Positions 1,169-18,528 of a stretch of DNA of 64,000 bases are shown piece by piece. The stretch is from Candidatus Hydrogenedentota bacterium (GTDB taxonomy: Bacteria > Hydrogenedentota > Hydrogenedentia > Hydrogenedentales > SLHB01). The notes under the pieces are model-generated. The model searched no databases and was not told the DNA's origin. It saw only the letters and a program-made list of their open reading frames with translations. The stretch covers positions 32,001 to 96,000 of the forward strand of contig BTWA01000017.1 of the NCBI GenBank assembly GCA_045863295.1, in the 5' to 3' direction. Position 1 is the stretch's first letter; every line of letters starts with the position of its first letter. Made by a program: the position numbers and the translations under genes.

Positions 1169-1169
1169 A

Positions 1170-1403
1170 TTACTTAGTCTCCTTTGTCGTCGGGGCTGAG
1201 CGTTCGAAGTGGGTATGACCCAAGTGCCGCGTTTTCTTGAACGGCTGGCCGGATGTTTTGGGACGTGGAGACGTTTCCCCTTGGGGGTCTGATGTCAAGT
1301 CCTTCGTGTGGTTGGCTCCATATGTTTTGCATCCGGAAAGAGCGAATGTTGTACATACCAAGATGGCTGTGAATAGTAGCTGTTGGATTACTCGGTTTTT
1401 CAC
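1170..1403 (-). CDS. Small putative lipoprotein (~77 aa)
   Basis: GTG at 1403 behind a purine-rich RBS (GAGAAAGGAAAGGG); VKNRVIQQLLFTAILVCTTFALSGC has an LSGC lipobox; its stop abuts the TolC start. Confidence 0.5.
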   Translation of the reverse strand: MKNRVIQQLLFTAILVCTTFALSGCKTYGANHTKDLTSDPQGETSPRPKTSGQPFKKTRHLGHTHFERSAPTTKETK

Positions 1404-1683
1404 GGCTGGGTGACCCTTTCCTTTCTCAGTGAACTCCACACGAATGGCAAAAAGCATTCGAGTTGTTGCGGTACTTTCACGAGGGCGTACGGTTAGCGTG
1501 GCGCTGGTTGAGGGGTTACGGGACCATCTTGTCGATGCTGTGCTCGACTGAATCCCGGTCACTGCACGCCCGTGCAGTCAGAGGATAGAGCGTGGAAGTG
1601 GGCCTACCCAACAATTGATGAGAAGACCAACTACCAAGTAGCCGAGAAGCGATGATCCGAACCGAACACAGAAGGTAGGCGGA

Positions 1684-2124
1684 TCAAATGAGTAGTACGA
1701 CCGTACGAAGAGGAGTGGGTGACAAATGGGTGGGATTATTGCGGTTAAAAGGTTGGCGAGTACAAAGCACGGCCGCCAGACTCGTCAATGATAACTCCGT
1801 ACAGTAGGACTTCTGGACTGGATTCGGCGCAAAAAGCCGTGAAGAAAGTGCAAGATTATTCGCATGTGTAGATATGAGCGGCATATCTGTGCAAGGGCCA
1901 CAGTGCGAATTGTCCTGCGTCACATTCGTTTGATGGTCTGGCTCTGTACGCGACGCTGACTGTGCGAGATTGTCGAAACAACGGCCTCGCTGAGCGGCTT
2001 CTATTTCCCTGTGGCCATCCTGCCCTACACACAAAACACGGAGATCGTGGCCGGGCACACCTGCCACGAGTTGTAGGACAAAAATCGTTCCAACAAGGGA
2101 AACAAACAATCTCTTTGCGATCAT
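1684..2124 (-). CDS. Cys/His-rich exported protein upstream of the metal-efflux genes (CzcI/DUF2946-like leader)
   Basis: N-terminal hydrophobic segment, VLCVGQDGHREIE, SHCGPCTD, and a Pro-rich tail ending LRTVVLLI. ATG 2124 lies downstream of a sigma70-like promoter. Confidence 0.6.
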   Translation of the reverse strand: MIAKRLFVSLVGTIFVLQLVAGVPGHDLRVLCVGQDGHREIEAAQRGRCFDNLAQSASRTEPDHQTNVTQDNSHCGPCTDMPLISTHANNLALSSRLFAPNPVQKSYCTELSLTSLAAVLCTRQPFNRNNPTHLSPTPLRTVVLLI

Positions 2125-2146
2125 GTGGACAGCCTCATCCGGCAGA

Positions 2147-2175
2147 AGGGTATCAATCGAAATCCCAAATGTCAA
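2147..2175 (-). promoter_or_regulatory. sigma70-type promoter for the czc-like module
   Basis: Minus strand TTGACA (2175-2170), 17 nt, then TACCCT (2152-2147) with an extended-10 TG. Confidence 0.55.
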
Positions 2176-2540
2176 TAAACACGCTCGGTATATCCGGGGG
2201 CGTAAAAGCCCTCTGTGCGTTCAAATTATCGAATGACGCGGCTATTGATCGCCTACCAGCAGGCGTCCAATCAGGGCTACGGAGTGTTCGGCCACCATTC
2301 ATTAGGAGGCTTCTTAAGTTCCGAAAGCAGACAATCTCTCCGCCTGATCACACAATAGCTAACAGTCCAACCAGCAAACAGAACAATTCAACACTTGTCG
2401 CATATTCCATCATTGGATTGAATATTCGACTCACTTTTCGAACCTGCTGCTACTTGACCTATTAGCCTGACTCATACGAAGGAATACGCTCCATTCTCCA
2501 ACTCCCATTCTCTGTTTTATTCAAGCGATCGGGCACGCTG

Positions 2541-2966
2541 CTATTGAAGTGCTTTCAGTTCCTTCTTCAACTCCTGAAACATTCTGCCCTGTGCCCTTGG
2601 AGAGGAGAGTCTGGTGAGACGTCGAAGGCGCCTCTCAGTGAAGAAAGTGACCTCAACATGCTCCCGGGCGGAACCCAGTTCTTGGACAATATCAGGCGGA
2701 AGCTTGAGCAGATTCAGCAATTGAGTGACTCGAGACGGCGTCAAACCTACTTGCTTCGCAAGCTGCGACTGATTGTCGACCACTCCTTGGTCGAGCATAC
2801 TTCGAAAGGACAAGGCGAGCGCTATTGGATTAATCGGTTCGGCCTTACCCGGCTCATCCCGTTGGATCGTCGTGTATATAGCATTGCGATCTAATGAGTT
2901 GCGATAAACCGGGGACACATGCCATCCGTGAGCAAAAGTTCGCTGAGTTCGCACCGCGCGGAGCCA
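2541..2966 (-). CDS. ParB-like HTH protein or displaced recombinase C-terminal segment beginning at the att site
   Basis: NPIALALSFRSMLDQGVVDNQSQLAKQVGLTPSRVTQLLNLLKLPPDI is an HTH. The frame reads WLR through the tRNA 3'-end repeat with no convincing ATG/RBS. Confidence 0.5.
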   Translation of the reverse strand, partial: WLRAVRTQRTFAHGWHVSPVYRNSLDRNAIYTTIQRDEPGKAEPINPIALALSFRSMLDQGVVDNQSQLAKQVGLTPSRVTQLLNLLKLPPDIVQELGSAREHVEVTFFTERRLRRLTRLSSPRAQGRMFQELKKELKALQ

Positions 2967-2968
2967 TT
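2957..2968 (+). repeat. tRNA-Asn 3'-end fragment (candidate attR), direct repeat CGCGGAGCCATT
   Basis: Identical 12-mer at 2957-2968 and 3328-3339. It matches the acceptor-stem 3' strand plus G discriminator and CCA, and is followed by a terminator hairpin. Confidence 0.65.
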
Positions 2969-2979
2969 TTGCTTCTAAC

Positions 2980-3004
2980 AGCCACCTCGCCGAGGTGGCT
3001 TTTT
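2980..3004 (+). terminator. Intrinsic terminator-like hairpin after the tRNA 3' fragment
   Basis: AGCCACCTCG-C-CGAGGTGGCT followed by TTTT. Confidence 0.6.
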
Positions 3005-3007
3005 CAC

Positions 3008-3259
3008 ATGTGCTGGGTATACATACTGCAAAGTCAGAGCACAGGCCGGTATTACTGCGGTTCAACAGACGATGTTGAACGGCGGGTCCGGCAGCATAAC
3101 GACTCCGGCTATCGCGGCACCAAGACGACCAAACGTTTTGAAGGTCCTTGGACTCTCGTATGGACAGAGCAGCACCCAAGCCGTTCGGTCGCGATGACAC
3201 GCGAAAAGCAAATCAAAGCACGCGGTATCGCCCGCTTTCTGGCGGATACGACGCGGTAG
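3008..3259 (+). CDS. Small GIY-YIG nuclease (YhbQ/UPF0213/Slx1-like, 83 aa)
   Basis: MCWVYILQS...YYCGSTDDVERRVRQHN...TKTTKRFEGPWTLVWTE...SRSVAMTREKQIK contains the VY-x-YxG motifs, the RxxQHN helix and the catalytic E. Confidence 0.88.
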   Translation: MCWVYILQSQSTGRYYCGSTDDVERRVRQHNDSGYRGTKTTKRFEGPWTLVWTEQHPSRSVAMTREKQIKARGIARFLADTTR

Positions 3260-3337
3260 CTCAGTTGGTTGAGTCCCGCCGCAGGCGGGATTAACCACCA
3301 TGTCCCGCGCGTCGCGGGAGTCCTACCCGCGGAGCCA
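3250..3337 (+). pseudogene. tRNA-Asn-derived pseudogene interrupted by two palindromes
   Basis: Retains CGCGG-TAGCTCAGTTGGTTGAG (D arm), TTAA-CCACC-ATGTC (3' half of the anticodon arm and variable loop) and AGT-CCTAC-CCGCGGA-G-CCA. The 5' anticodon stem and the GTAGGTTC half of the T arm are replaced by hairpins. Confidence 0.7.
3274..3319. repeat. Two related 17-nt REP-like palindromes
   Basis: TCCCGCC-GCA-GGCGGGA (3274-3290) and TCCCGCG-CGT-CGCGGGA (3303-3319). Confidence 0.8.
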
Positions 3338-3345
3338 TTGACGTC

Positions 3346-3380
3346 AAAAGGGGTTGCGCTTCATGCGCAACCCCTTTTTT
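3346..3380. terminator. Bidirectional intrinsic terminator
   Basis: AAAAGGGGTTGCGC-TTCAT-GCGCAACCCCTTTTTT. Confidence 0.8.
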
Positions 3381-3590
3381 GTAATACTCACCGCTGCTGG
3401 TTTCGCCCAGCCTCCTGTTAACCAGTTTGCGCCTCAGTGAAATCTCCGGCGCAGGTTGTGTCAAACACGGGGACCAGAACCGGGCAAAGTTGGAAGCCAA
3501 TACAGAAGTCTTATCACCAGACATCCGATTGGAACCGTAACGTCATCGTGCGCCTCGTTGTTCGGTCCAGCGATTGGCTCGGTCTGGCCG

Positions 3591-4310
3591 CTACTCAATG
3601 GGTTGCGGTAACTGACCGGTCGCAATGCGGTAGGCGATCGTGTAGATCACGCCCGCGAGAACCCCGCCGACATTGAACAGCAGGTGCGCGAAAATGGCGG
3701 GCCGCAGGCTGCCCGTCCGGGCGCGCGCCATCGCGCAGACGTATCCGAGCGCCGTCACTGACAGCACGATGACCATGACCGCGGCGATTTTCATATCGCC
3801 AAACAGCAACACCAGATGCATGGCGCCGAACAGCGCCGCACTCCACAGAACAGCGGTGGGCGTGTCGGCCCCGGCGAGCGTTTGGAACCAGGCCCGGCAA
3901 AAGATTTCTTCTACGAGGGGCGCGACAGCCCAAGTCAAGAGCACGAACCAGAGCAAGCCAGAAGCGGCAAGGTCCTCCCCGGGGCCTTGCAGGCCGAACG
4001 CCAACATGACGCCCGTGCACACGGCGCCCAGTGCGAGACCCCACAACTTGAAGTGGCCCTTGGCCGGCGCCGGGCGGCGGAATCCGAACTCTGCCAGCGG
4101 ACGCCTCGACGCAACCATCGCCCCGAACGCGACCGCCACCATCAGCCCTTGGGTCACGGCCTGCTGGGTCCACGGATACCGCGTCGTAACCGACTCGGGC
4201 AGGGCCCAAGTCGCGAGAAACGCGGCGACGAAGACGACGAGTGCGAGCCCGAATACGGCGAGCGGATTCCACGTCGACCCTCTCTGTGCATGATCAGGAC
4301 TTCGGATCAA
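3591..4310 (-). CDS. CPBP family intramembrane glutamic endopeptidase (CAAX/Abi-like)
   Basis: Multiple TM helices with APLVEEIFCR, LFGAMH and AIFAHLLFN motifs. Exact start uncertain. Confidence 0.88.
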   Translation of the reverse strand: MIRSPDHAQRGSTWNPLAVFGLALVVFVAAFLATWALPESVTTRYPWTQQAVTQGLMVAVAFGAMVASRRPLAEFGFRRPAPAKGHFKLWGLALGAVCTGVMLAFGLQGPGEDLAASGLLWFVLLTWAVAPLVEEIFCRAWFQTLAGADTPTAVLWSAALFGAMHLVLLFGDMKIAAVMVIVLSVTALGYVCAMARARTGSLRPAIFAHLLFNVGGVLAGVIYTIAYRIATGQLPQPIE

Positions 4311-4550
4311 AACCGAACTCCCAGACTTTTTGTGCGGATCGGCAGCGCTTGACCTAATGGCAATAGGTTTGCTCCGTGCGGCGGCTGTAGCGCCGCGACC
4401 GCAACACCTAACGCACCCTGCTTTCGACTTCGTTCTGCCGCCCAGTATGCACGCCGGATATCGCCTTGCTAATCAAGAATAGCGCTGCTGTGGTCGCATC
4501 GCAAGCGCCGTCTGTATCTACGGTACTAGGCCATGGTGTGTATTCTATCA

Positions 4551-4621
4551 AGCTGACGCGCCAAATGGGCCGCGCCAGATCCGGCGCGCAGCGATGCGTC
4601 GGCTCCAGTCGGATGTTAGCC
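4551..4621 (-). mobile_element. Degenerate integron attC site downstream of the GNAT gene
   Basis: Minus strand GGCTAAC (overlaps the TAA stop)-ATCCG-ACTGGAGCCG...CGGCCCATT-TGGCGC-GTCAGCT, 71 bp, with R''/L''/L'/R' layout and mismatches. Confidence 0.45.
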
Positions 4622-5071
4622 GGTCCCTTCCTCCAGATCTCCGTGATCCAGAGCGAACGTGTACATTACGTGCTCACCCACGACTTCTTTCCCACCGGCG
4701 GACGCGTAGAGTCGCATCGCCGGGCCATTCGAACGGTCAGTGAGGACCCAGGCCTCACGACAGCCCAAGCGCTTTGCGTGCTGCAGCAGCGTTCGCACAA
4801 TGGCCTTGGCAAGCCCTCGGCCCTGATGGCTCGGTGCGACACCGACTTCGTTAACCCACAGCTCAGGTGCCTTGTCGGGGTGTACGTAATGCACGCCTGA
4901 GGCGAAGCCAACGACCTGGCCCTGGTCAATGGCAACCGCCACGTGATGCCGAGGATCGCTTATGAACTCCGAGGCGAGATCAGGATCCACCGTGTGATCG
5001 AACACACCATCAGCGACGTTGTAAAAGATAGCCTGATCGCCAGAACGGAGAATTCTGATTTCGGGGCTCAT
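4616..5071 (-). CDS. GNAT family N-acetyltransferase
   Basis: ELWVNEVGVAPSHQGRGLAK motif A and NGPAMRLYASAGG motif B. Confidence 0.88.
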   Translation of the reverse strand: MSPEIRILRSGDQAIFYNVADGVFDHTVDPDLASEFISDPRHHVAVAIDQGQVVGFASGVHYVHPDKAPELWVNEVGVAPSHQGRGLAKAIVRTLLQHAKRLGCREAWVLTDRSNGPAMRLYASAGGKEVVGEHVMYTFALDHGDLEEGTG

Positions 5072-5752
5072 GGTTTGCTTTCTTGATGATCCGGCCAACA
5101 ATGGTTATATGGTTTTGTCATGCCACCTTTGGGCCGCGACGTCGCGGCATAAGAACCCGCCTGCAAATCCCTCGCAACGCCAGTATTTCCCGATCATTAG
5201 GCCAGCATTCATAGACCCAACTCTTCCGATACCATTACCGCAAACACTTGGCTGGACAACCTGTTTTCTTGCGAGGGTGCGTTGTCAACCGGTCGAGCGC
5301 GGGTACTTTGCCAGCGGCTTATCCTGATGTGAAGGAGATCGAAATTGGTTCTACAACGACTGGGCCAGATTCGGGCTTCTCCGTCATAATGCGTAATAAG
5401 AGGACTCTTGCTTGAGAAATAGTCTCTTTATGGGTTGCGCCCTACTTCACGACGCCGCACAGCTCTGTTACTTCCACTATCGAACGTCCCGTTTCTGACG
5501 ATACCCCTTGTGCAGCGTACTCGTCAATGCAACTCAAGCTTGCTGGACTTCTCTAAGTGCCTTTCTTGGCATGGGATTAGTCGAATCGTTCCGGGATTGA
5601 CCGGATGGGGGGATTCCGATAGGATTCAGGAGCGGTGTTCCCGGACGGGCTGCTGGCGCGCAGTCCGTGACATGTTCCTGTGGCGAAAAGGCTTTAGACA
5701 CGGTATACCTTGGCCGCGATGAGGCCGGGACCGAGGCTCGGGAGTGAATCAC

Positions 5753-6538
5753 ATGGTGGGCAAATTCTGGGTTGTGCTGATGTCGCAAATCAACAAGCTC
5801 GCCAATTTTTTCTGGCAGGCCGATCCCATTGCAGTGATGCAGCTTGAGTACGACAACGCCGTGGCCCAGTTGAAAGAGGGGCGGGAAGGGCTGGAGCAGT
5901 ACCGGGCCCTGGTGGAGCGCGTTACCCGTCAGGTGAAAGCCGATGAAAAGCGGGTGGCGAGCTTGACGGCGGAGGTCAAGGCGTATCTGAAGCTGAACGA
6001 CCGCGAGACGGCAGGCAAGTTTGCGCTGGAGTTGAAGCGTGCGCAGACAGAGCTTGCGGAGAATCAAGAGCAGCTCAAGTTGCATGAGACTGCGTATCAA
6101 AACCACCTCACGAAGATTCAGCATGCCACGCGCAAGTTGAATGAGGTTCAGACCAAGATTCACAAGTACGACGCCGAGCTCAAGATGAGCGCTGCGGAAG
6201 CCGAAATGGCGAAGCTGGCGGAGAGTTTCAATTTCAATGTGACTACGGATTTCGGCGAGTTGGAAAACATGATCCAGAACAAGATCGATGTGAATCGCGC
6301 GAAGGTGCGGGTATCCGCCGATCTTTCCAACGAGGGCGTAGCGGACATCGAAGCGGAGCAACGCAAGGAAGCCATGGAAGCGGAGGATCTGCTGCAACAA
6401 TTCGAGGTTGATATGGGCATCAAAACGCCGGAAACGGCGAACGTTCCGCAGCAGGAAAAGACGTTGGGCCAAGCTGAAGCGACACCGGCGGTGCGCGAAG
6501 ACGCCTTGAAGGACGTGGAAAAGCAGTTGGGCGCATAA
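5753..6538 (+). CDS. PspA/IM30 (ESCRT-III superfamily)-like coiled-coil protein
   Basis: N-terminal amphipathic helix (MVGKFWVVLMSQINKLANFFW), ADPIAVMQ (the DP motif of PspA), a long helical hairpin with a RETAGKFALE turn, and an acidic C-terminal helix (EAEDLLQQFE). Confidence 0.72.
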   Translation: MVGKFWVVLMSQINKLANFFWQADPIAVMQLEYDNAVAQLKEGREGLEQYRALVERVTRQVKADEKRVASLTAEVKAYLKLNDRETAGKFALELKRAQTELAENQEQLKLHETAYQNHLTKIQHATRKLNEVQTKIHKYDAELKMSAAEAEMAKLAESFNFNVTTDFGELENMIQNKIDVNRAKVRVSADLSNEGVADIEAEQRKEAMEAEDLLQQFEVDMGIKTPETANVPQQEKTLGQAEATPAVREDALKDVEKQLGA

Positions 6539-6609
6539 TGGAATGCTTGTTTCGCGCGACTGCGGACCGGGCAACGACTTAGGCATCCGAACACGGGAGG
6601 TAGTGGAAC

Positions 6610-8406
6610 ATGGCGCAGCCAGGCGGAGGCGGCCCTCGGGCCAGTTTTTATGTGGCGTTGTTTGTCATCGTGGCGGCCCTTGCCGTGTATGGCCTTCGTG
6701 ATTACATTTTTCCCAAGGGCGGCAATTCGGCGGATACGCCACCCCAGCCGCCAATCCAATTAAGCGATACGCAACAGACAACCGTTGACCAGGCCTCCAC
6801 CACGAGCACCGCGACGGACGGCGGGGCGGAAGCGGCCGACGACAACACCTTGACCACGGTTAAAGAGTATTCCTACGTACCGGGCGAGAAACTACCGCCC
6901 GTCAGCGGCATATCCAATTATCAGCCGTTGTCGGATCGCACCGTCAAATTTGCGCTGAACGTGTGGGCAGGCTGGGCTCCTATTCTGTTGCATAACGAGG
7001 GCAAGGGGCCGGGCAAAATCTGGAAGACGCCAAGCGGCGAAGATTTCAAAGTTGAGCTCGTGTTGATAGATGACCCCGTGGCGATGCGTGATGCCTATGC
7101 TTCCGGGAATGTACATATTGGTTGGGGCACGCTGGATATGGTGCCTCTGTTCATGGAAGAGTTCCAAAAGGATAGCCGTATCGCTCCCCGCATTTATCAG
7201 CAAGTGGACTGGTCGAACGGTGGGGACGGCATCGTCATGCGGCGTGCCCACGCGAAGGATCCGAACAGCCCCACCATCTCCGATTTGCGCGGCAAGAAAG
7301 TGGTACTTGCCCAAAACTCACCGAGTCAGTTTTTCGTGCTGAACGCGCTCATCAACGGTGGCGTGCAACCGGCTGAAGTGGATTTCATTTACACCCAGGA
7401 CGCGTTTCAAGCGGCGGCAGCGTTCAATACCAACAAAGACATTGCCGCGTGCGTCAGTTGGGCGCCGGATATTTACAACTTGACGAAGATACAGGGCAAC
7501 CATCTTCTGGTCACGACGGCGACGGCGAACAAGATTATCGCGGATGTGTGGTTCGCGCGCGCGGATTTTGCCAAAGACCATCCGGATATCTGTGAGGGCC
7601 TGGTTCGCGGCATATTCGACGGCATGGAGGCAATGAAGACCGACGAGGGGCGTCAGCAGGCGGCCCAGTTCATGTCGAAGATGTACAACATTCCCGCTGC
7701 GGACTGCATGGGCATGTTGGGCGACGCGCACTCCACGAATTTCGCGGAGAACCGCGATTTCTTCATGAATCAGAACAACCCCACGAATTTCGAGCGCACG
7801 TGGGACACAGCGAATTATCTGTACCGTCACATCGGCAAGATTTCGAGGCCGGCGGCATTCGATACAGTGATGGATTTCTCCATACTGCAAAAGTTGGCGG
7901 CGGAACCCAAATACGCCAACAGCAAGAATGAATATCAGGTGGCGTTTACGCCCAAGTCCGTGCAAAGCATCAAGGCGGAGAGCGGCGAGATTCTGACAAA
8001 GGTCGTGATGTTCCATTTCTTTCCGAACAGTTACGATCTCTATCACAAGATCACGGTACAGGAAGACGGCAAGGACACCGAGCGCGCGTATGACCCGAAT
8101 GTAGACTTCACGCTTGAGGAGATTGGCAAATTGTCCGGCCAGTACGGCGCGGCGCGCATCGTCATTGAAGGGCATGCCGACGCCAGCATGAAAGGGCAAG
8201 TTACGCCCCAATTGATCAAGCAACTTTCCGAGAACCGGGCCAATGCGGTGAAGGAGGCGCTGGTAAAGCTGTTTCCGTCCCTGGATCCGATGCAGTTCAG
8301 CGCGACCGGGATGGGTTGGGATGTACCCGCCGATCCTAGCGATCCTCTGAATCACGCCAAGAACCGCCGTGTGGAAGTAAAGGTGTATCCCCTGGAGGCT
8401 CAATAG
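6610..8406 (+). CDS. NitT/TauT-type ABC substrate-binding protein fused to a C-terminal OmpA-like peptidoglycan-binding domain
   Basis: N-terminal TM anchor; WAGWAP, DWSNGGDGIV and SWAPD PBP motifs; C-terminal IVIEGHAD...QLSENRANAVK...AKNRRVEVKV OmpA-C signature. Confidence 0.88.
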   Translation: MAQPGGGGPRASFYVALFVIVAALAVYGLRDYIFPKGGNSADTPPQPPIQLSDTQQTTVDQASTTSTATDGGAEAADDNTLTTVKEYSYVPGEKLPPVSGISNYQPLSDRTVKFALNVWAGWAPILLHNEGKGPGKIWKTPSGEDFKVELVLIDDPVAMRDAYASGNVHIGWGTLDMVPLFMEEFQKDSRIAPRIYQQVDWSNGGDGIVMRRAHAKDPNSPTISDLRGKKVVLAQNSPSQFFVLNALINGGVQPAEVDFIYTQDAFQAAAAFNTNKDIAACVSWAPDIYNLTKIQGNHLLVTTATANKIIADVWFARADFAKDHPDICEGLVRGIFDGMEAMKTDEGRQQAAQFMSKMYNIPAADCMGMLGDAHSTNFAENRDFFMNQNNPTNFERTWDTANYLYRHIGKISRPAAFDTVMDFSILQKLAAEPKYANSKNEYQVAFTPKSVQSIKAESGEILTKVVMFHFFPNSYDLYHKITVQEDGKDTERAYDPNVDFTLEEIGKLSGQYGAARIVIEGHADASMKGQVTPQLIKQLSENRANAVKEALVKLFPSLDPMQFSATGMGWDVPADPSDPLNHAKNRRVEVKVYPLEAQ

Positions 8407-8457
8407 GCCGGACAGCGACTCCTGTAACGGGAACGTGCCGGTTGATGAAGGAGCACC

Positions 8458-9489
8458 ATGGCGAGTTCAAAGATACGGAGATATTTCGAGCGCTGGACTG
8501 TCATTCGCGACAGGCCGGGCGTTGCCGAAGGCATGATCATATCCATTGGTTGCCTTGCGATTGTGCTGTTTGTTTGGTACCTCGTAACGCTTGGCAAGCC
8601 TGAAGAGCGGCTGGTCGATCGCATTACGCTTCCCAGTCCGCGGGAGACGATAGAGTCGTTTCCCGCCTTGTGGTTCGATCGGGCTGTCATGCGTGGCGCG
8701 CTTGCAAGCTTGGGGCGTGTGCTGGGAGGGTTCATCCTTGCGGCCTCGGTTGCAGTGCCGTTGGGCGTGTTGGCGGGGAATTTCCTGCGCCTGAACGCAT
8801 TCTTGAAGCCGTTGTCCATTTTCGGCCGGAATATTCCCATTGCGGCGCTCATTCCGTTGACTCTCATGTGGTTTGGCTTGGGCGAAACGCAAAAGGTGAT
8901 GTTCATCTTTTTCGCCTCGGTGGCCTTTATCTTTTTTGACAGCACCGGCGCAATCCAGCGCGTGGCGGACAGTCATTTGGATGCCGCGTACACGCTCGGA
9001 GCGGGCTCGGTGTGGAAGCGCGGCGCCCTGTGGGCTGTGGCGGTAGGCGTTTTGTACGGTGCGGTCTTCGGTGGCGGCCACGTCACACTGGCGCAACGGC
9101 CGGGACCAAACGATGCGCAGCTTTGGGCTACGTGGCGCACGCACCTCGCGGCCATGACCTTGGGCGGGTTTGCGCTTGGGTTTCTTTTGTGGTGGCCTGT
9201 CTTCAGCAAGCAAGCGATTGGCAAGGTGCTCCTGCCGTTGGCCATGCCGGATATCGTGAATAGTCTTCGACTGCTATTTGGTCTGGCGTTCGGCTACATC
9301 ATGCTCGCGGAGGTGATCAACGCGGAATACGGTTTGGGCGCCATCATCAATCTCAGCCAGCGCCAGGGTCCGCGTGAACATATCTACCTTTCTCTCATTC
9401 TGATTTCGTTGCTGGCGTTTCTGATCGATCGGTCGATATTGAGCGCACAACGGTGGCTGTTCCCGTATCGCCGCATAGGAGAGCACTAA
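8458..9489 (+). CDS. ABC transporter permease (NitT/TauT/SsuC type) with an internal insertion
   Basis: LPSP, SLGRVLGGF, RNIPIAALIPLTLMWFGLGE, DAAYTLGA (EAA-like) and YIMLAEVINAEYGLG. Confidence 0.88.
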   Translation: MASSKIRRYFERWTVIRDRPGVAEGMIISIGCLAIVLFVWYLVTLGKPEERLVDRITLPSPRETIESFPALWFDRAVMRGALASLGRVLGGFILAASVAVPLGVLAGNFLRLNAFLKPLSIFGRNIPIAALIPLTLMWFGLGETQKVMFIFFASVAFIFFDSTGAIQRVADSHLDAAYTLGAGSVWKRGALWAVAVGVLYGAVFGGGHVTLAQRPGPNDAQLWATWRTHLAAMTLGGFALGFLLWWPVFSKQAIGKVLLPLAMPDIVNSLRLLFGLAFGYIMLAEVINAEYGLGAIINLSQRQGPREHIYLSLILISLLAFLIDRSILSAQRWLFPYRRIGEH

Positions 9490-10362
9490 ATGGCGACGAC
9501 GCGACAAGCGGCGCCATGTTCGATTATCGATGCGGCGCGCGCACCCGCAAAGGAAAATGCGCCGCCGATTATAGAATTCAAGGGAGTTGCCAAGACATTT
9601 GGCGAGGGTACCGCACGCGCAACCACCGTGGTGAAAGACGTCACCTTCGTTGTTGAGGATCTTGAGGATGCTGGCGAGTTCATTGCGATCCTCGGGCCGA
9701 GCGGTTGCGGCAAGAGCACGGTGCTTCGGCTTGTCGCCGGGCTTGCCCCGCATTTTCCGGCCACTCAGGGCGAAGTACTCTACCATGGACAGCCCGTGCC
9801 GGGTCCCGGCGCGGATCGCGGCATGGTATTTCAGGATTATGCATGTTTTGACAATCGGACCGTCGTTGACAATGTAGCGTTTGGCCTGGAGTGCCAGGGC
9901 GTGGCCAAAGCGGACCGCGTCGCCCTGGCGATGGATTGGATCCAGCGCGTCGGATTGAACCCGGCACGGGATGCCTACAAGTACCCGCACCAGCTTTCGG
10001 GCGGCATGCGGCAACGCGTGGCCATCGCGCGCACGCTGATTTTGAAACCGCGCGTCATTCTGATGGATGAACCGTTTGGCGCACTTGATCCCGCGACCCG
10101 CCATAACATGCAGGACTTGTTGGTCGCGCTTTGGAAAGAAGTCCAGGCAACCGTGTTTTTTGTGACGCATGACGTGAACGAGGCGGTGTTTCTGGGCGAT
10201 CGCGTGTTCATCTTCAGCAATGCGCCCGGCACCATCCTTCACAAATTCTTCGTGCAGTCCCCTGATCGGCCCGCGCGGTTGATGATGCGCGAGGGCAGCT
10301 TTCAGGAGACCGTGATGCATGTAAGAGGTATTCTGGACAAACTTGAAGAAGGCAGCGGTTGA
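9490..10362 (+). CDS. ABC transporter ATP-binding protein (TauB/SsuB type)
   Basis: Walker A GPSGCGKS, signature LSGGMRQR, Walker [13 protein letters not shown]-loop VTHD. Confidence 0.93.
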
Positions 10363-10363
10363 G

Positions 10364-11212
10364 ATGGCGTTGGGACGCACCGGCTTCACGCAGTATGTAA
10401 AGGCCGCCTTTCTCTGGCATTGGAATCTGCTGGCGGTGGGCGCGGGCGTGGCGCTTGCCGTGCTTTCCGGCAAGCCGGATGTCGTTTTTCCACTGCTCAT
10501 GGCGGGTGAGATGCTTTACCTGGGCCTGTTGACCACGCGCCCCCGGTTTCAGAAAGCCATCGATGCGAGAACCGCCGCGGCCGTGGGATCGTCTCAGGAT
10601 GATCTCCGGTTGATGGCGGAGATCAAGAAGACCCTGCACCCCGAGGCCTGGTCTCGGTTTGAAGAGCTTCGCGCGCGCTGCCTGGCCTTGCAGAATCTGG
10701 CGGAGCAGATGCGTGGTTCTCAATCCGCGGAGCCGGTGCGCGTGCGCGAAATGCAGACCGAATCGCTGGAACGGCTCTTGTGGATGTTCTTGAAGCTAAT
10801 CTACAGCCATGAGGCGGTTCAACGGTTTCTGCGCACGACGAACCGGGACGCGCTTGTGGCGCAAATCTCCTCGGCGGAAAAGGAAATTCAGTCCGCCAAG
10901 GCGAAGAACCGTAGCGACAAGCTGATTCGATCCATCGAGGACAAGCTGGAAACGTTGAAGCAGCGTCTCACGAATTACGACAAGGCCGACGAAAATCGCG
11001 AACTGCTGGCAGCGGAAATCAATCGCATTGAACAAAAGGTAAACGCGATCAGCGAAATGTCCATCAGCGCCCGCGACGCATCCGACGTTTCAGCGCAGGT
11101 GGATGGAATTGCCGACGGCGTTTCAGTCACCGAGGCGGCGATACAAAAGCTGGACGTGATGCCGATCTTTGAGCGCCAGACTGCGCCAAAACTATTGAGT
11201 CAAAGCCACTAA
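10364..11212 (+). CDS. Uncharacterised 2-TM membrane protein with a long coiled-coil
   Basis: Two N-terminal hydrophobic helices, then a heptad-rich helical region. Translationally coupled to the ABC ATPase (TGA-G-ATG). Confidence 0.8.
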   Translation: MALGRTGFTQYVKAAFLWHWNLLAVGAGVALAVLSGKPDVVFPLLMAGEMLYLGLLTTRPRFQKAIDARTAAAVGSSQDDLRLMAEIKKTLHPEAWSRFEELRARCLALQNLAEQMRGSQSAEPVRVREMQTESLERLLWMFLKLIYSHEAVQRFLRTTNRDALVAQISSAEKEIQSAKAKNRSDKLIRSIEDKLETLKQRLTNYDKADENRELLAAEINRIEQKVNAISEMSISARDASDVSAQVDGIADGVSVTEAAIQKLDVMPIFERQTAPKLLSQSH

Positions 11213-11243
11213 TCGTCAACACGCAAGAACAAAGGGACCTCTG

Positions 11244-13025
11244 ATGCCGGATACCGCCGCGCCACAGTGGGTGGATGATCTCAAGCAAGCCTATCTTTCC
11301 GGCGCCGCCAGCATGTTCATACTGCATGGAAACACCTCAGACCTTGTGGGAAGCGAACAGGGTGGTGAATACAACCTTGATCCGCTCTCCGACTATCTTG
11401 CGCAGCATCTCTTCGGCAGTTATGACATCGTCCTGCACTTCGATTTGGGGCGCGGCCTTCGGGCGCTGCCCGGCCGGGATCAACAACGCCTCGCGCGCAT
11501 GAATGCAGACATATCGAAAGTGCTCGGCGACAAAGGTGATTTGCCACGGGATCCGACACAAGCCATGCGCGTAATCGATCGACTGGCATCGCTCTTGATT
11601 GTGGGGGCGGAGAGCCGCACACGAAAGACGGCAGTGCTGTTCGATTACGCGGACATGATCTGTCCGCCGGACGGCCGTACCGATGAACACCTTGCCACCT
11701 TTCTGAATTGGGCGCGCAGCCCGGTCATTCGGCGGGTGAACTTGATCTTTATCTTGATGACCGAGAGCCTTGGATTGCTGCATCCCGCGTTGGTTCAGAG
11801 CGGCCACACGTACGAATTGCTCGTACCCATGCCGAACGAGGCGGAGCGGCGCGCGTTTATCGCGAAGCGGTTTCCACAGTCCGCCTCCGATGCGGATCGC
11901 CTGGCCATCTTGAGTTCGGGGTTGACCCTTACCAATCTCGATACCATGATGCGACGCGTCGCGCAGTCTGAGTCTGCGCCCATACCGGCATCGGCCGCGG
12001 CAGCCGATGTGGTCAAGCCCGATACCGCGCTGCAAGGCCCCGCGCCCATCAAGACACAAGCCACGAGCGATTCACGAATGCTGGAGATTAAGAAGTCGCT
12101 CATGGAAGCGCAATGCCCGGGGTTGTTCGAATTCATCAAACCGAATTTTACGCTCGATCTCGTCGCGGGCCACACCGCCGCGAAGGACCGGTTGACAAGC
12201 GACGCGCGGCTGATTCGCGAAGGCAAGCTGGATGCCGTGCCGATGGGGTATCTGCTTTGCGGCCCCGTTGGCGTTGGCAAGACGTTTCTCGCGTTGTGTT
12301 ACGCGGGCGAAGTCGGAATACCGTGTTTGTCGATCCGGAATTTTCGAAGCAAGTATGTAGGCGAAACCGAGGCTAATCTTGAGCGTATTCTGAGCGTAGT
12401 CCGTGAATTGGGCCCAGTGGCCGTAATCATTGACGAAGCGGATGCGGCCGTGGGCGATCGTTCCAACTCGGGCGATTCCGGCACCAGTTCTCGCGTGTTT
12501 GCCCAATTGGCCAGCCAGATGGGTGATACGCGTTATCGAGGCAAGATCATCTGGTTTCTGCTCACGTGCCGTCCGGATTTGCTGCCCATCGACCTGAAGC
12601 GGCAAGGGCGATGTGAAGAGCACATTCCGCTCTTCTATCCACAGACGCCGGACGAGCTAAAAGATATGTTCAGGGCCATGTCCAAAAAGGCCAAAGTGGC
12701 CTTGGATGACGCGACGCTTGACGAGATTGGAAAAATGCCGCCTCTGAGCGGAGCGGACATCGAGGGGATACTCATGCGCGCCCGGCGCGAATCCATCTTG
12801 AGCGGAAAACCGGTCGATGCAAACATCATCAAGGAAGTGATGAAGAGTTTTCGCAGTGTGAAAGGACCGGAGCACGAACTGCAATGGATTGCCGGGATTC
12901 TTGAGTGCACGGACACACGCTATCTTCCCGCCGACGTGCGCAAAGCCACCGAGAAAGAAGGCGGCTTCGAAGTCTTTGCCAAGCGGTTTCGCGAGTTGTC
13001 GGCGTTGGAACAGGCGGGCATGTAA
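11244..13025 (+). CDS. Classical-clade AAA+ ATPase (Vps4/Cdc48/Ycf46-like) with a degenerate N-terminal AAA-like domain
   Basis: Walker A GPVGVGKT, pore loop SKYVGETE, Walker B VIIDEAD, Arg-finger region LKRQGR, and LSGADIE. Confidence 0.9.
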   Translation: MPDTAAPQWVDDLKQAYLSGAASMFILHGNTSDLVGSEQGGEYNLDPLSDYLAQHLFGSYDIVLHFDLGRGLRALPGRDQQRLARMNADISKVLGDKGDLPRDPTQAMRVIDRLASLLIVGAESRTRKTAVLFDYADMICPPDGRTDEHLATFLNWARSPVIRRVNLIFILMTESLGLLHPALVQSGHTYELLVPMPNEAERRAFIAKRFPQSASDADRLAILSSGLTLTNLDTMMRRVAQSESAPIPASAAAADVVKPDTALQGPAPIKTQATSDSRMLEIKKSLMEAQCPGLFEFIKPNFTLDLVAGHTAAKDRLTSDARLIREGKLDAVPMGYLLCGPVGVGKTFLALCYAGEVGIPCLSIRNFRSKYVGETEANLERILSVVRELGPVAVIIDEADAAVGDRSNSGDSGTSSRVFAQLASQMGDTRYRGKIIWFLLTCRPDLLPIDLKRQGRCEEHIPLFYPQTPDELKDMFRAMSKKAKVALDDATLDEIGKMPPLSGADIEGILMRARRESILSGKPVDANIIKEVMKSFRSVKGPEHELQWIAGILECTDTRYLPADVRKATEKEGGFEVFAKRFRELSALEQAGM

Positions 13026-13029
13026 CCAT

Positions 13030-14346
13030 TTACTTCGAGGATGCCTCCCACGGGGGATGCGTGTTAATGCCCGAGTGCAACATGGGGTATTTGCTGGACG
13101 GATCTCTTAGTAGTGGTACCACTTTGCCTGACAACTGTTCGTCAAAAAACCCCCCTACCAAATCAGTCAATAGCGCCAGCAGAGTCATGCCACTTACACT
13201 ACCTACCATGTCTTGGGTAATGACAAACGGGTACAGCGGTTGGAATAGAGCGAGATCCACGGAGAATCCCATATGCTCCAACCCATCAACCTGAAACGAA
13301 TAAAATGTGGACGCGTTTTCCCGCACCGCGGCTGGGCAGTTGCGCTCGTCCCAATTAGCCCAGTATTCGCTCAGGGTGATACCCCGTTCCGCGAGATACT
13401 CCGGTGGCGGCGGTTCTGACTTATCCGACACCAGCGCAAAGCCACCGGTGACCCCTTGATCCAGGATGGGTTGGAAAACAGATGTGCCGTCCATGTTCAG
13501 ACCCGCACGAATACGCGAATCCAGTGTCATGGCTGCCGCTGCATTTTGCCCGCCAAAGGAGTGTCCGAACGCACCGAGCCGAGCAAAATCAAAGAGCCCT
13601 TTCAGCGGTCCATCCTCCGAGGCGCGCTTTGTTGCTTCGTCAATCGCCGTTACCGCGTCCTCCGCCCAAACGCGCGACACCTCTTGTTTTGCCTTGTCCC
13701 TCGTTGCTTCTTCTCCTTCCCACATTGCGCCGTAGCCTTCGAAGGATGACTCGACAATGCGGCCATCGGCAAACAAGGTGCGTGACGTTGTATATGGATG
13801 CCAAAGGGCCAGAATTACATAGCCCCGGCTGGTCAAGTGTTCCAATAAGCTTGTGTAGAAGACTGGCGGACCGTCTATGCCGGGTGAAAACACCAGTACC
13901 GGATACGGGGCGCCACTCGGATCTGGTTTGGCGTTGGCTACCCAGTTGGGCGAAATGATGTCTGTTGCGATTGCCGGCACCCCGGTCACGCCTGAGGCAA
14001 TCACGGAATCCAAATACGGTCCGGGTTCGGCGTCTGTCGCGACAGCGGGGTAGTAGACATCGACACGAATCTCTCTGTGATCGGCCTCGTCAACGGTAAA
14101 AAGTTCAGGCCGATCCATGTCGACGACGTCCCACGTTGTCCGCCCAACGGCGAAGGGCCCATCCGGAGCGGGTAGGTGTAATCCTCCGCCGGCAATGAAC
14201 CTGATCGGCTTTTGTGCAAGGATTGCCAGGGATGCGATGCCTACAACGGACAACGCGGCAACGATCATTCCGATCCGGCGTAGCCGGGGGCCTCGAAGGA
14301 GTGGTGATTCAGGTGCGGCGCTCTGGTTTTCGAGTCTGCTTTGCAT
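13030..14346 (-). CDS. Membrane-anchored alpha/beta hydrolase (PAF-acetylhydrolase/dienelactone hydrolase-like)
   Basis: LPAPDGPFAVG, YPVLVFSPG, nucleophile GHSFGG, LNMDG, and the His in LEHMGF. Start uncertain. Confidence 0.85.
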   Translation of the reverse strand: MQSRLENQSAAPESPLLRGPRLRRIGMIVAALSVVGIASLAILAQKPIRFIAGGGLHLPAPDGPFAVGRTTWDVVDMDRPELFTVDEADHREIRVDVYYPAVATDAEPGPYLDSVIASGVTGVPAIATDIISPNWVANAKPDPSGAPYPVLVFSPGIDGPPVFYTSLLEHLTSRGYVILALWHPYTTSRTLFADGRIVESSFEGYGAMWEGEEATRDKAKQEVSRVWAEDAVTAIDEATKRASEDGPLKGLFDFARLGAFGHSFGGQNAAAAMTLDSRIRAGLNMDGTSVFQPILDQGVTGGFALVSDKSEPPPPEYLAERGITLSEYWANWDERNCPAAVRENASTFYSFQVDGLEHMGFSVDLALFQPLYPFVITQDMVGSVSGMTLLALLTDLVGGFFDEQLSGKVVPLLRDPSSKYPMLHSGINTHPPWEASSK

Positions 14347-14662
14347 TAGCGATGGCCTCCTTCGCCCATTCGGTAAATTGCCCGTCGTCTTCGAGCACAT
14401 CGGCAGGCACTTCATAGTACCGCCGCACGTCTACGCGCCGCGTCTTGGTGTTGTATGCGAAGCAACCGCTTCCCATGGCTTCGTATTTTGGGCGAGTCGT
14501 GTCGTCGACCACGAAATACAGCACGCCAGAGATAATCATGGCAAATTGTACGCCATCAGCGGAAAGGCCGATGCCGCCGAACAAGCGCCCGCTTGAAATG
14601 CCCTTGAAACCGGCCAGCCGATCCAATACATACTCGAGAAAGGCGTTGGATGACGAAGTCAT
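14309..14662 (-). CDS. TfoX/Sxy N-terminal domain protein
   Basis: FLEYVLDRL...RLFGGIGL...FAMI...LYFVVD...YYEVPADVLED...WAKEA. Confidence 0.85.
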   Translation of the reverse strand: MTSSSNAFLEYVLDRLAGFKGISSGRLFGGIGLSADGVQFAMIISGVLYFVVDDTTRPKYEAMGSGCFAYNTKTRRVDVRRYYEVPADVLEDDGQFTEWAKEAIANAKQTRKPERRT

Positions 14663-15057
14663 GATTCGGACTCCAGAACGCGTTTTAATCCCGCCAGATC
14701 AGTGGCAACCATCGCTGTATCCTTGTCAAACTGTTCGTCGTTCATGTCCGGCAGCCGAAATACCGTGAAAATGACCACGCTCGAACCTACTTGGGGCTCC
14801 AGTACACGCATGGGGACATACACCGTGAGGTCCGCGTCCACTGTGACCCAATGATCCAAAATCCTGTGACTGTTTACCTGCGAAAAGCGGATTCGCACAA
14901 CACCCTCCGGCGTCGTAGCGGTCCAAGCGTCACCATCGGGCCTCATGTCCTTGATAAATTGGCTCCACGCCGGGAAATTGGGTGGATGGGCTAGGTAGGC
15001 ATACACCCTATCCGCTGGCTGCCGGATAGAGACGCTAACCGTGCGACACTCATTCAT
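14659..15057 (-). CDS. SRPBCC / polyketide cyclase-like protein
   Basis: VSVSI...VYAYLAHPPNFPAW...ILDHWV...VPMRV...DLAGLKRVLE. Confidence 0.8.
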   Translation of the reverse strand: MNECRTVSVSIRQPADRVYAYLAHPPNFPAWSQFIKDMRPDGDAWTATTPEGVVRIRFSQVNSHRILDHWVTVDADLTVYVPMRVLEPQVGSSVVIFTVFRLPDMNDEQFDKDTAMVATDLAGLKRVLESES

Positions 15058-15602
15058 ACCGTTTGCTTTCCGTACTTTGCTGCCAGGCGCCGCACCGTAT
15101 TCATACCGCGAAAGGTTGCCTTGGTCTTTGTGATGCGTTCGAAAGCGGCATTCGAAAAGGTTGAGTCGCTTTGTTTCGTTTTGCAGACCCAGTATATCTC
15201 CGTGCCATGGACATGGAAATAGTCGCTGTCCGTTTTCAATGCCAGTATCGCTTTAGTGGATTCGAGCGATAAGGGTTCGGCCAGAAATCCGACAACGAAG
15301 GCCGTGGCGGAAGCCAAGATCTTTTTGCTGGCAGGCTCGTATGTTGCGATGGCCGCAATTTCGGCATCCGTGCGCAGAAACGTACTTACCTCATAGCCCA
15401 GCGCGGCTTTCAGATGGACCTCAATCGCCTTTGCCAAGGCAGCGGTGTTTTTACTTCTGGATTCGAAAATGACGTTGCCACTGGCAATGAAGGTTTCCAC
15501 TTTGGAATGACCCAGTTCTTCGAAAAGGGTTCGTAGGCGATCCATGGTGACAGTATGGCCGCCCACGTTTATGGCACGGAGAAACGCGATATACCGGATC
15601 AC
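15054..15602 (-). CDS. DUF1697 family protein
   Basis: YIAFLRAINVGG...VETFIASGNVIF...ATFRGMNTVRRL. Confidence 0.88.
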   Translation of the reverse strand: MIRYIAFLRAINVGGHTVTMDRLRTLFEELGHSKVETFIASGNVIFESRSKNTAALAKAIEVHLKAALGYEVSTFLRTDAEIAAIATYEPASKKILASATAFVVGFLAEPLSLESTKAILALKTDSDYFHVHGTEIYWVCKTKQSDSTFSNAAFERITKTKATFRGMNTVRRLAAKYGKQTV

Positions 15603-15764
15603 GGTTTTTCCCTTCGCGGCGATATTCTTTGATCGGCCCTATTGTACATGCCGGACCTTCCTCATGAAGAGCTTACACGTTTTGAATACAATGATGCTGT
15701 GCAGGCCCGATGCGGCGGGGATCGGAATTGGGATGGGGCGATGCTTAAAACCGGGAGACTGGCA

Positions 15765-16694
15765 ATGGCTAATGGAATGACACGCAGACAGTTGTTGATG
15801 GCAGGGGCTGTGGCAGGAGTGGCCGGGCAGGCATCCCGCGCCGACGCCGCGCTCCATACACGATCGAAGCGGGGCCGGGCGCTGCGGTTTGCACATTTGA
15901 CCGATGTGCATGTGCAACCCGAGTTGGCGGGCGGGGAAGGGTTCGCGGCGTGCCTCCATCACGTGCAGAACCAAAAAGACGCGCCTGAACTCCTTGTCTT
16001 CGGCGGTGACAATGTTATGAACGTAGACAGTGAAGATGGAGCCGCGCGCGCGGACGTGCAACTCAATCTCTGGAACAGCGTGTTGAAGTCCGAATGTTCG
16101 CTGCCGCACAAAGTAGCCATCGGGAATCATGACATTCTTCATAACCATCCGGTAGACGGAAAGCAATGGGCCGTCGATGCGTACGGCTTGCCGGGAAGGT
16201 GCTACGTGTACGACCAGGCCGGCTGGCGGTTCATTTTTTTGGATGGGGTTATGCCCCAAGTCACCGGATACATTGGCAAATTGGACGACGCCCAGTTCGA
16301 ATGGCTGGGCGACCGCCTGAAAGAGGCCGGGAATACGCCCGTATGTATCGTCAGTCACATTCCGATACTCGCGGTGTGCACCTATTTATGTTTGAAAGAA
16401 CCGCCGCAAGGAGACTGGCAGACTCCTGCTTCGTGGATGCATGTGGACGCGCACCGGATTAAGGATTTGTTCAACAAGCACAAGAACGTCAAGTTGTGTC
16501 TTTCCGGCCACATGCACATGGCCGACAGCCTTACGTATCTTGGGACGACTTACACGTGCAACGGCGCGGTTTCCGGCGGCTGGTGGAAGGGCGCGTATTT
16601 TGAATTCGATCCCGGATATGCACTGGTGGACCTATACGACGACGGCGAAGTGGCGGTGGAATTTGTAAACTATGGTTGGACGGCGAAAGCGTAA
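15765..16694 (+). CDS. Tat-exported calcineurin-like metallophosphoesterase (Icc/CpdA-like)
   Basis: Twin-arginine signal TRRQLL; motifs HLTDVH, GGDN, IGNHD, VSHIP and SGHMH. Confidence 0.88.
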   Translation: MANGMTRRQLLMAGAVAGVAGQASRADAALHTRSKRGRALRFAHLTDVHVQPELAGGEGFAACLHHVQNQKDAPELLVFGGDNVMNVDSEDGAARADVQLNLWNSVLKSECSLPHKVAIGNHDILHNHPVDGKQWAVDAYGLPGRCYVYDQAGWRFIFLDGVMPQVTGYIGKLDDAQFEWLGDRLKEAGNTPVCIVSHIPILAVCTYLCLKEPPQGDWQTPASWMHVDAHRIKDLFNKHKNVKLCLSGHMHMADSLTYLGTTYTCNGAVSGGWWKGAYFEFDPGYALVDLYDDGEVAVEFVNYGWTAKA

Positions 16695-16736
16695 CATCGC
16701 CTCTGATGCGGCGATTACTCAAGGTACTTGAGACAC

Positions 16737-17519: not shown

Positions 17520-17562
17520 GCCCACCGGGATTTCCTTCAGTGGAAAGCAGTTGGATTTTCGA

Positions 17563-18504: not shown

Positions 18505-18528
18505 GGCCTGTCAACCTCCCTGCAAAGG

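Follow-up and report, generated by a model that had tools for sequence, protein, structure and literature searches.

Does a bacterial protein of the ESCRT-III superfamily have an ATPase to take its polymer apart, as Vps4 does for ESCRT-III in archaea and eukaryotes? This question is raised by six consecutive genes (g1 to g6) at positions 5753 to 13025 of the window, a 64,000-nt stretch of DNA from a Candidatus Hydrogenedentota bacterium (assembly GCA_045863295.1, contig BTWA01000017.1, positions 32,001 to 96,000 of the forward strand). The predicted products are a PspA/IM30-family protein (g1), a substrate-binding protein (SBP) fused to an OmpA-like domain (g2), an ABC permease (g3), an ABC ATPase (g4), a protein with two transmembrane (TM) segments (g5) and an AAA+ ATPase (g6). 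A first interpretation made from the letters alone (the sequence-only reading) had taken them for an ESCRT-III/Vps4-like membrane-remodelling operon coupled to a peptidoglycan-tethered ABC system. That interpretation proved partly right: the gene content, the co-occurrence of the genes and the linkage of PspA to an AAA ATPase were supported, while a Vps4-like architecture and a role of the 2-TM protein as membrane recruiter were not. The cassette consists of two modules, a g1+g6 pair and a constant g2-g3-g4-g5 block, and we regard it as an evenly balanced proposition that the g6 ATPase acts on the PspA-like g1.

According to Makarova et al. (2024, mBio 15:e00335-24), systems with both vps4 and ESCRT-III are restricted to archaea and eukaryotes, a 2025 review describes a Vps4-like ATPase as apparently absent in bacteria, and Liu et al. 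(2021) count the corresponding ATPase of Vipp1/PspA among the open questions. The idea of such a pair is not new, and the locus is one more well-preserved example of it. In an in silico study, Ravi et al. (2024, mSystems 9:e00847-23; PMC11237479) proposed ATP-dependent membrane remodelling akin to Snf7/Vps4, reporting that bacterial PspA sometimes occurs with a two-AAA+ protein whose N-terminal domain is inactive, that PspA–AAA dyads occur in Firmicutes, and that PspA, a membrane-anchored divergent Snf7 and the ATPase may be part of extended operons that also encode an ABC ATPase, a permease and a PBPB-OmpA binding protein. One row of their Table S3 (OGG56892.1, Candidatus Handelsmanbacteria) lists the same six architectures in the same order, with g5 matched for its TM part, so the earlier suspicion that such neighbourhoods might already figure in phage shock protein surveys was correct; the present locus differs in belonging to another phylum, Hydrogenedentota. 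We found no experimental paper on the operon in the literature searched, most subscription journals being outside its coverage. The present analysis contributes the two-module structure, a second gene order, the phyletic matrix, the confirmation of the dead first AAA domain by its fold, and the strict co-occurrence of g1 and g5.

RESULTS

Six genes recur together and form two modules

An open reading frame (ORF) check returned six plus-strand ORFs between 5753 and 13025 with the coordinates claimed for them, and the measured intergenic gaps from g1 to g6 were 71, 51, 0, −20 (+1 from the g5 ATG) and 31 nt, bearing out the description of six co-oriented genes spaced by 0 to 71 nt. Pfam, NCBIfam and hydropathy analyses likewise upheld the identities that the sequence-only reading had given to the products, namely PspA/IM30-like, SBP-OmpA, permease, ABC ATPase, 2-TM and AAA+. 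To place the locus among its relatives, an alignment of g5 was scanned against one genome per species, which returned a relative in at least 356 species; the best 80 loci were kept and typed by tblastn with the six window proteins (3 of the 80 are contigs of 3 of the 4 loci from the host's own family described below). Adequate flanks, meaning at least 8.4 kb upstream and at least 2.5 kb downstream of g5, were available for 37 of the 80. All six genes lie together in 29 of these 37 loci, in two gene orders, confirming the earlier expectation that the genes co-occur elsewhere; they are all present in 42 of the 80, most of the others being cut by contig ends. The cluster is far beyond chance, co-linearity of the six being seen in 29 of 37 flanked loci of other species. 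By record title, the six-gene loci represent at least five phyla (Hydrogenedentota, Planctomycetota, Acidobacteriota, Myxococcota and Thermodesulfobacteriota). Within the family, 6 of 24 other genomes have a g6 orthologue, and the 4 loci examined show all six genes in the same order. The locus almost certainly belongs to this operon class.

The window's own order, g1-g2-g3-g4-g5-g6, is also the commonest (22 of 37 flanked loci). A second order, g1-g6-g2-g3-g4-g5, was found in 6 of the 37, from Planctomycetota and one deltaproteobacterial bin, and g6 follows g1 directly in 11 of all 80 loci. One flanked locus, the last of the 29, has g2-g3-g4-g5 and then a divergent PspA-like/AAA pair, one has g5-g6 only and one has g5 alone. 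We also looked at five genomes in which a g5 locus has no adjacent g6; full-length g6 was encoded elsewhere in all five, and in three of them it lay directly 3' of a g1 homologue. From the gene orders among the 37 flanked loci, g2-g3-g4-g5 is a constant unit and g1 and g6 move as a pair, and the cassette is therefore composed of two modules. Across 41 related genomes g1 and g5 are confined to the same 8, and a g6 orthologue is present in 7 of those 8.

Two of the individual loci deserve separate description. In a Planctomycetota bin (L032:10933-13405), g2-g5 are followed by a PspA-like gene and an AAA gene (27% identical to g1 and 32% identical to g6, respectively), so the same pairing recurs with distant paralogues. 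In a genome from another family of the same order (G032:C404:1-7500, locus L137), g5 is followed by 808 nt of unrelated sequence and no AAA gene.

g1 is a divergent PspA-family protein

The Pfam model PF04012 (PspA_IM30) matched g1 along positions 5-213 of its 220, scoring 48.7 bits (E 9.3e-13) where 33.9 is the cut-off, and PspA_IM30 was the family in 29 of the 30 best named ESM Atlas clusters neighbouring g1 (scores 0.95-0.96), both as expected from the sequence-only reading of the first gene. In addition, residues 2-21 were computed to be amphipathic (hydrophobic moment 0.45, mean hydrophobicity 0.40, Eisenberg scale), and this N-terminal segment is kept in 22 of 22 aligned members of the g1 family. 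On the Pfam match, the language-model neighbours and the amphipathic segment, g1 is classified by sequence as a PspA/IM30-family member, and a very divergent one. A whole-genome profile search found three PspA_IM30 genes in the host, g1 scoring 49 bits and the others 137 and 129.5, and the PF04012 scores are bimodal across the order, with canonical copies at 128-163 bits and the g1 type at 43-49. The C-terminal tail of g1 carries the motif AEDxL..FE..MG...PET followed by K.LG (about aa 210-240), also found in 22 of 22 aligned members; this tail is a candidate handle for the ATPase. As had been noted from the letters, the operon is free of PspF, PspB and PspC: none of the six proteins matches such families in Pfam or NCBIfam.

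g6 is a tandem AAA+ protein outside the Vps4 family

The intact Walker A and B motifs and the KYVG pore loop first read from the sequence of g6 were all located in its second AAA domain (D2; Table 1), which is covered by the Pfam AAA match (PF00004, 93 bits, aa 336-462) and has two invariant arginines, R453 and R456, in its second region of homology. The first 245 residues proved to be a degenerate AAA domain (D1). A profile of D1 matches Cdc48/p97/VAT over the stretch between Walker B and the lid (E 4e-08), LFDYAD aligning at Walker B, which was further confirmed by the fold: the AlphaFold2 (AF2) model of D1 (predicted local distance difference test, pLDDT, 87.7; predicted TM-score, pTM, 0.83) had p97 ND1, Yta7, NSF/Sec18, Rix7 and Pex1/6 as its top Foldseek matches (probability 1.00, E ~1e-6, TMq ~0.5). 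The affinity of g6 was judged from NCBIfam model scores and PDB ranks in place of an AAA-domain tree. Its best PDB sequence matches are Afg2, VAT and p97/Cdc48 D2 (E ~1e-36), and no Vps4-named chain appears among the best 60 of 264 PDB matches; the NCBIfam scores, all below cut-off, were 76.6 bits for CDC48, 64.5 for PAN, 59.9 for FtsH and 40.6 for CdvC (NF041006, cut-off 650).

Judged from sequence and model, g6 is a classical tandem (type II) AAA protein with a dead D1 and a predicted active, Cdc48/Afg2-like D2. The ATPase is thus not Vps4-like in architecture, contrary to what had been proposed, the nearest relatives of its D2 being the D2 domains of Cdc48 and Afg2. On this evidence g6 is not a member of the Vps4/CdvC family: an MIT domain is missing, a second AAA domain is present, and by sequence and model scores it lies nearer to domains of the Cdc48 type, with the CdvC model far below its cut-off. 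By analogy, g6 may work like Vps4.

Evidence for and against an action of g6 on g1

We co-folded full-length g6 with g1, each protein having its own alignment. The score was 0.42 (runs 0.39, 0.42 and 0.44), in the class termed 'weak support', and the best of 3 controls gave 0.00; contacts agreed between runs to at least 93%, with a partner pLDDT of at least 62. On calibration, 116 of 157 solved complexes passed the mark, as did 2 of 215 mismatched pairs, and scores of 0.60 or less held only 18 of the 157 solved complexes plus both passing mismatches. Taken together, the genomic linkage and the co-fold nudge up the odds of a g6–g1 contact and settle nothing.

A number of observations weigh against an action of g6 on a g1 polymer. 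The weak co-fold class is rated more often wrong than right when there is no good prior. As to g1 itself, no NCBIfam model matches it, neither sequence nor profile searches matched it to a solved PspA/Vipp1 chain, and tblastn and hhalign gave no similarity between it and the two canonical PspA genes of the genome. The sensor-1 residue of g6 D2 is Cys, where Asn is usual (LLTCRPD, aa 439-445, window 12558-12578); across the g6 family many relatives have Ser here, and Asn is confined to the most distant members. Rods of Synechocystis PspA bind and hydrolyse ATP unaided (Junglas et al. 2024), so that an external ATPase is no logical necessity. Nor is the AAA gene obligatory: 4 of the 37 flanked loci have g1-g5 only and 2 have g2-g5 only, and genome G032 (95% complete, 590 contigs) has g1-g5, with no g6 N-domain found in its assembly. 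Finally, the commonest gene order puts g6 beside g5 and not beside g1, which makes g5 equally possible as its client.

This last point leads to a different account, in which g6 works mainly on the membrane module, extracting, unfolding or assembling g5 or the ABC complex, and PspA just stabilises the membrane nearby. Classical AAA proteins of the Msp1 and FtsH types handle membrane proteins. The position of g6 directly after g5 in 22 of 37 flanked loci, the locus reduced to g5-g6 and the weak class of the co-fold of g6 with g1 all speak for it, and g5 has a conserved C-terminal end of the PxLL type, with an invariant P275, that could serve as a handle. Against these stand the 6 of 37 flanked loci in which g6 lies beside g1 and apart from g5, the free-standing g1-g6 pairs in 3 of 5 genomes examined, and the PspA–AAA dyads that Ravi et al. 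(2024) describe without an ABC block. We consider a membrane-module client unlikely.

A putatively wall-tethered ABC unit with a probable helical partner

The products of g2, g3 and g4 are, from their sequences, standard parts of a type-I binding-protein-dependent importer, nearest to taurine, sulfonate and nitrate systems (TauABC/SsuABC/NrtABC). In g2, Pfam recognised an NMT1-type SBP (25.1 bits, cut-off 20.5) and an OmpA domain (PF00691, 34.2 bits, cut-off 27.2, at aa 514-584), and its solved relatives are TauA (6ssy_A, E 5.6e-09, the best for the SBP), Omp38 (3td3_A, E 4.9e-05), OprF and Tpn50. Since an N-terminal TM anchor and a C-terminal OmpA-like domain fix both of its ends, g2 should span from the inner membrane to the wall. 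The permease domain of g3 was matched by BPD_transp_1 in two stretches (47.5 bits, above cut-off) and, below cut-off, by the NCBIfam models SaoP (109.5 bits, cut-off 295) and TauC (89.2); g4 was matched by ABC_tran (98.8 bits, likewise above cut-off) and by the NCBIfam taurine ATP-binding subunit TauB (212.5, cut-off 357). No substrate-specific NCBIfam model reached its cut-off for g2-g4, the urea-type SBP model scoring 64.7 against 333.9 and SsuA- and TauA-type models falling far below.

Beyond the usual six, g3 has two hydrophobic segments inside the permease domain, at aa 189-211 and 230-248. The region holding them (window 9022-9201, aa 189-248) splits the Pfam permease match and aligns poorly in distant relatives. 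As a guess, the hairpin of g5 could dock at these segments.

A hydropathy scan placed a TM hairpin in g5 at aa 16-58 (numbering from the ATG, position 10364, which is also the start in the public gene call of 282 aa); a cytoplasmic domain of about 220 aa is predicted to follow. The AF2 model of g5 is entirely helical (pLDDT 84.5, pTM 0.70), and the hairpin residues W20, N21 and E49 are invariant. No Pfam or NCBIfam model matched the protein, and its family, with 122 matches in a large protein set, is unnamed or 'hypothetical' save for two automatic 'CheA' labels. Whatever the gene order, g5 lies immediately 3' of g4 in 35 of 35 adequately flanked loci with the ABC block, and this constant position, with overlapping or abutting frames, suggests that g5 is a subunit or adaptor of the transporter. 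The proposal that the 2-TM protein recruits to the membrane was not supported, as g5 tracks the ABC block in the 37 loci and not the AAA or PspA gene.

The 'divergent Snf7' label that Ravi et al. (2024) gave to a g5 homologue was not reproduced here. When 30 family members were searched at E<=1, Snf7 (PF03357) was not among the families listed for any one of them, nor was g5 matched in a whole-genome PF03357 search at E<=1, a blunt test in that the model stays below cut-off in 14 of 14 control genomes. In the ESM Atlas, one neighbour of g5 is a cluster with the Rv2743c (PspM) family in 40% of its members (0.87, 181 shared features), which is a lead only. The identification of g5 as PspM was rejected: the Pfam Rv2743c model (PF25587) did not match g5 in a whole-genome search at E<=10.

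The make-up of g2-g4 also suggests a plainer account, namely that the ABC unit is an ordinary importer, of an osmoprotectant or a sulfonate-like compound, and that PspA and the AAA protein are merely co-regulated with it under osmotic or envelope stress, with neither coupling nor sensing. All three parts are standard type-I components with best matches of the TauABC/SsuABC kind, and one archaeal ESCRT locus type contains a ProX binding protein (Makarova et al. 2024). However, an SBP fixed at both ends, by TM segment and OmpA domain, is unusual for nutrient uptake; a non-transporter gene, g5, is kept with g2-g4 in every arrangement that contains the ABC block, its frame either abutting that of g4 or overlapping it by 20 nt; and no substrate-specific NCBIfam model scores at cut-off. 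We hold this account to be quite improbable. That the ABC unit is a sensor rather than an importer, as the sequence-only reading had it, stays a hypothesis; its sequence is compatible with import of a solute, sensing of a solute and sensing of strain, and we favour neither importer nor sensor. Importers can act as sensors by way of a helical accessory protein, as in PstSCAB-PhoU.

Probable mobility and surroundings of the locus

The distribution of the cassette is patchy, its flanks are unconserved and g1 proteins from different phyla share 57-82% identity, which suggests that the cassette moves horizontally. In the window, the flanking genes encode a GNAT acetyltransferase, an Rce1-like protease and, on the other strand, a PAF-acetylhydrolase-like hydrolase; none of the window's flanking genes was found in the 4 family loci examined. 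In one relative of the same family (L019:3802-5960, the L010 contig), a 2.2-kb insert separates the g1 and g2 homologues. It encodes a 444-aa N6/N4 DNA methylase (PF01555, 54.6 bits), overlapped by an ORF of 285 aa without a Pfam family, and is probably a restriction-modification cassette that landed within the operon.

Mobility of this kind might also point to an anti-phage or conflict system, made of a PspA-like membrane protein and an AAA+ effector. Besides the patchy spread (6 of 24 other family genomes), the unconserved flanks, the very high g1 identity across phyla and the methylase cassette inside one relative's operon, weak matches of g6 to the IetA/IteA anti-phage ATPase models agree with this view. 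Yet the NCBIfam score for IteA is 48.2 against a cut-off of 510, PADLOC returned generic ATPase and coiled-coil matches with no system-specific protein, and no nuclease, toxin or other typical effector is found among the six genes, leaving a conflict system highly improbable.

The host genome comprises 6.3 Mb across 88 contigs, with a completeness of 96%; close homologues of g5 and g6 mostly bear the names Candidatus Hydrogenedentes or Hydrogenedentota. Several studies of sludge and bioreactors yielded metagenomes that contain nearly identical DNA at low depth. No RNA data set was listed as containing the locus, the single run labelled RNA-Seq being rated 'probably DNA'. Upstream of g1 lies a non-coding stretch of 650 nt (5102-5752). 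A single plus-strand promoter-like (sigma-70-like) site precedes g1 there, at 5597-5625, and is weak (9 of 12 positions). Promoter and terminator scans of 5000-13400 gave counts close to those of shuffled sequence (4 versus 3.7 +/- 2.3 and 13 versus 9.6 +/- 3.6), and an Rfam scan of window positions 1-20000 found no family. For a sigma-54-like consensus, the window contains 80 matching patterns against 78.0 +/- 8.7 by chance, and the plus strand of 5102-5752 has no -24/-12 match. Further upstream (2541-3259), a GIY-YIG ORF (2894-3259, plus strand, 64.1 bits) overlaps a ParB-HTH ORF (2541-3200, minus strand, 29.2 bits), and across the shared part probably no more than one of these frames is real.

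Table 1. Coordinates of the six genes, their parts and the canonical PspA genes of the host (window positions in nt unless a genome handle is given; aa, residues of the protein named)
Feature	Position (nt)	Residues or length	Strand	Description
g1	5753-6538	261 aa	+	divergent PspA/IM30-family (ESCRT-III superfamily) protein; alternative GTG start at 5744 likewise open
g2	6610-8406	598 aa	+	membrane-anchored periplasmic SBP fused to OmpA-like peptidoglycan-binding domain
g2 TM anchor	6640-6696	aa 11-29	+	only hydrophobic segment (hydropathy scan)
g2 SBP domain	6946-7845	~aa 113-412	+	
g2 OmpA-like domain	8092-8394	aa 495-595	+	
g3	8458-9489	343 aa	+	type-I ABC importer permease, TauC/SaoP-like
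g4	9490-10362	290 aa	+	ABC ATPase, TauB/SaoA-like; start codon right after g3 stop
g5	10343 (TTG) or 10364 (ATG)-11212	289/282 aa	+	2-TM hairpin and all-helical domain
g6	11244-13025	593 aa	+	tandem classical AAA+ ATPase
g6 D1	11244-11978	aa 1-245	+	degenerate AAA; FILHGN at Walker A position, LFDYAD at Walker B position
g6 linker		aa 246-275	+	low-confidence
g6 D2	12240-12803	aa 333-520	+	predicted active AAA domain, intact motifs
g6 D2 Walker A	12261-12284	aa 340-347	+	GPVGVGKT
g6 D2 pore loop	12351-12362	aa 370-373	+	KYVG
g6 D2 Walker B	12426-12443	aa 395-400	+	IIDEAD
g6 C-terminal extension		aa 521-593	+	conserved, without assigned family
Canonical PspA gene outside the window	G000:C21:101100-101747			PF04012, 137 bits
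Canonical PspA gene outside the window	G000:C2:251325-251969			PF04012, 129.5 bits

DISCUSSION

The explanation that we rank best, with roughly an even chance of being right, is a two-module cassette in which g6 remodels a g1 polymer and g5 is the adaptor to the wall-tethered ABC complex. In this scheme, g1 would polymerise on the cytoplasmic face of the inner membrane, as other PspA/ESCRT-III proteins do, and a g6 hexamer would spend ATP to extract subunits from the polymer, thereby remodelling or recycling it, with extraction probably beginning at the conserved C-terminal tail of g1. g6 would then do the job that Vps4 does on ESCRT-III as a non-orthologous ATPase, and g5, as a membrane adaptor, would link this remodelling to the ABC complex.

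Comparison with known systems shows where the locus resembles them and where it departs. With archaeal and eukaryotic ESCRT-III and Vps4/CdvC it shares an ESCRT-III-superfamily protein that neighbours a classical AAA protein with an aromatic pore loop, as well as the proposed ATP-driven removal of polymer subunits; it differs in that g6 lacks MIT and carries two AAA domains, not one, and in that g1 belongs to the PspA branch and not to Snf7. The archaeal Meth_adaptin/Halo_adaptin ESCRT loci described by Makarova et al. (2024) offer two further parallels, one locus type holding a ProX SBP and another a PspA-like protein with a Vps4-like ATPase in which a Cdc48/VAT-type N-domain replaces MIT; these loci, compared by their published description only, have winged-helix (wH) and adaptin-like components, and none is present here. 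Type II AAA proteins with one inactive ring (Pex1/Pex6, NSF and the p97/Cdc48 family) resemble g6 in using one domain as a scaffold, whereas g6 has no N-terminal double-psi barrel or adaptor before D1 and is much shorter, at 593 aa.

Among bacterial systems, the enterobacterial PspFABC also links a PspA-family effector genetically to an AAA+ protein. That protein, PspF, is an NtrC-type enhancer-binding AAA+ protein inhibited by PspA (Ravi et al. 2024), whereas g6 belongs to the classical substrate-threading clade and has no DNA-binding domain, and PspB, PspC and a sigma-54-like site are missing from the present locus. The mycobacterial ClgR-PspA-PspM(Rv2743c)-PspN system similarly encodes a small integral membrane protein with PspA (Ravi et al. 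2024); it differs in that the present locus has no ClgR or PspN and that the Rv2743c Pfam model misses g5.

A more far-reaching version, which we put forward tentatively and with some doubt, is that this mobile cassette is a working bacterial counterpart of ESCRT-III/Vps4. A dead-D1, Cdc48-like AAA+ protein would recycle a PspA polymer nucleated by the 2-TM adaptor at the ABC complex, the tethered SBP would report periplasmic strain or solute, and the polymer would be made and removed on demand.

For the biology of these bacteria, the cassette offers a compact, conserved candidate pair, g1 and g6, that is tied to a wall-tethered transporter and directly testable with purified proteins. Vps4 is believed to have arisen from Cdc48 when one of the ATPase domains was lost (Makarova et al. 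2024). If the ESCRT-III/Vps4 counterpart is real, a PspA partner that joins a dead AAA domain to a live one would exemplify the intermediate of that path, and g6 would be a living example of the step from Cdc48 to Vps4, by descent or by convergence.

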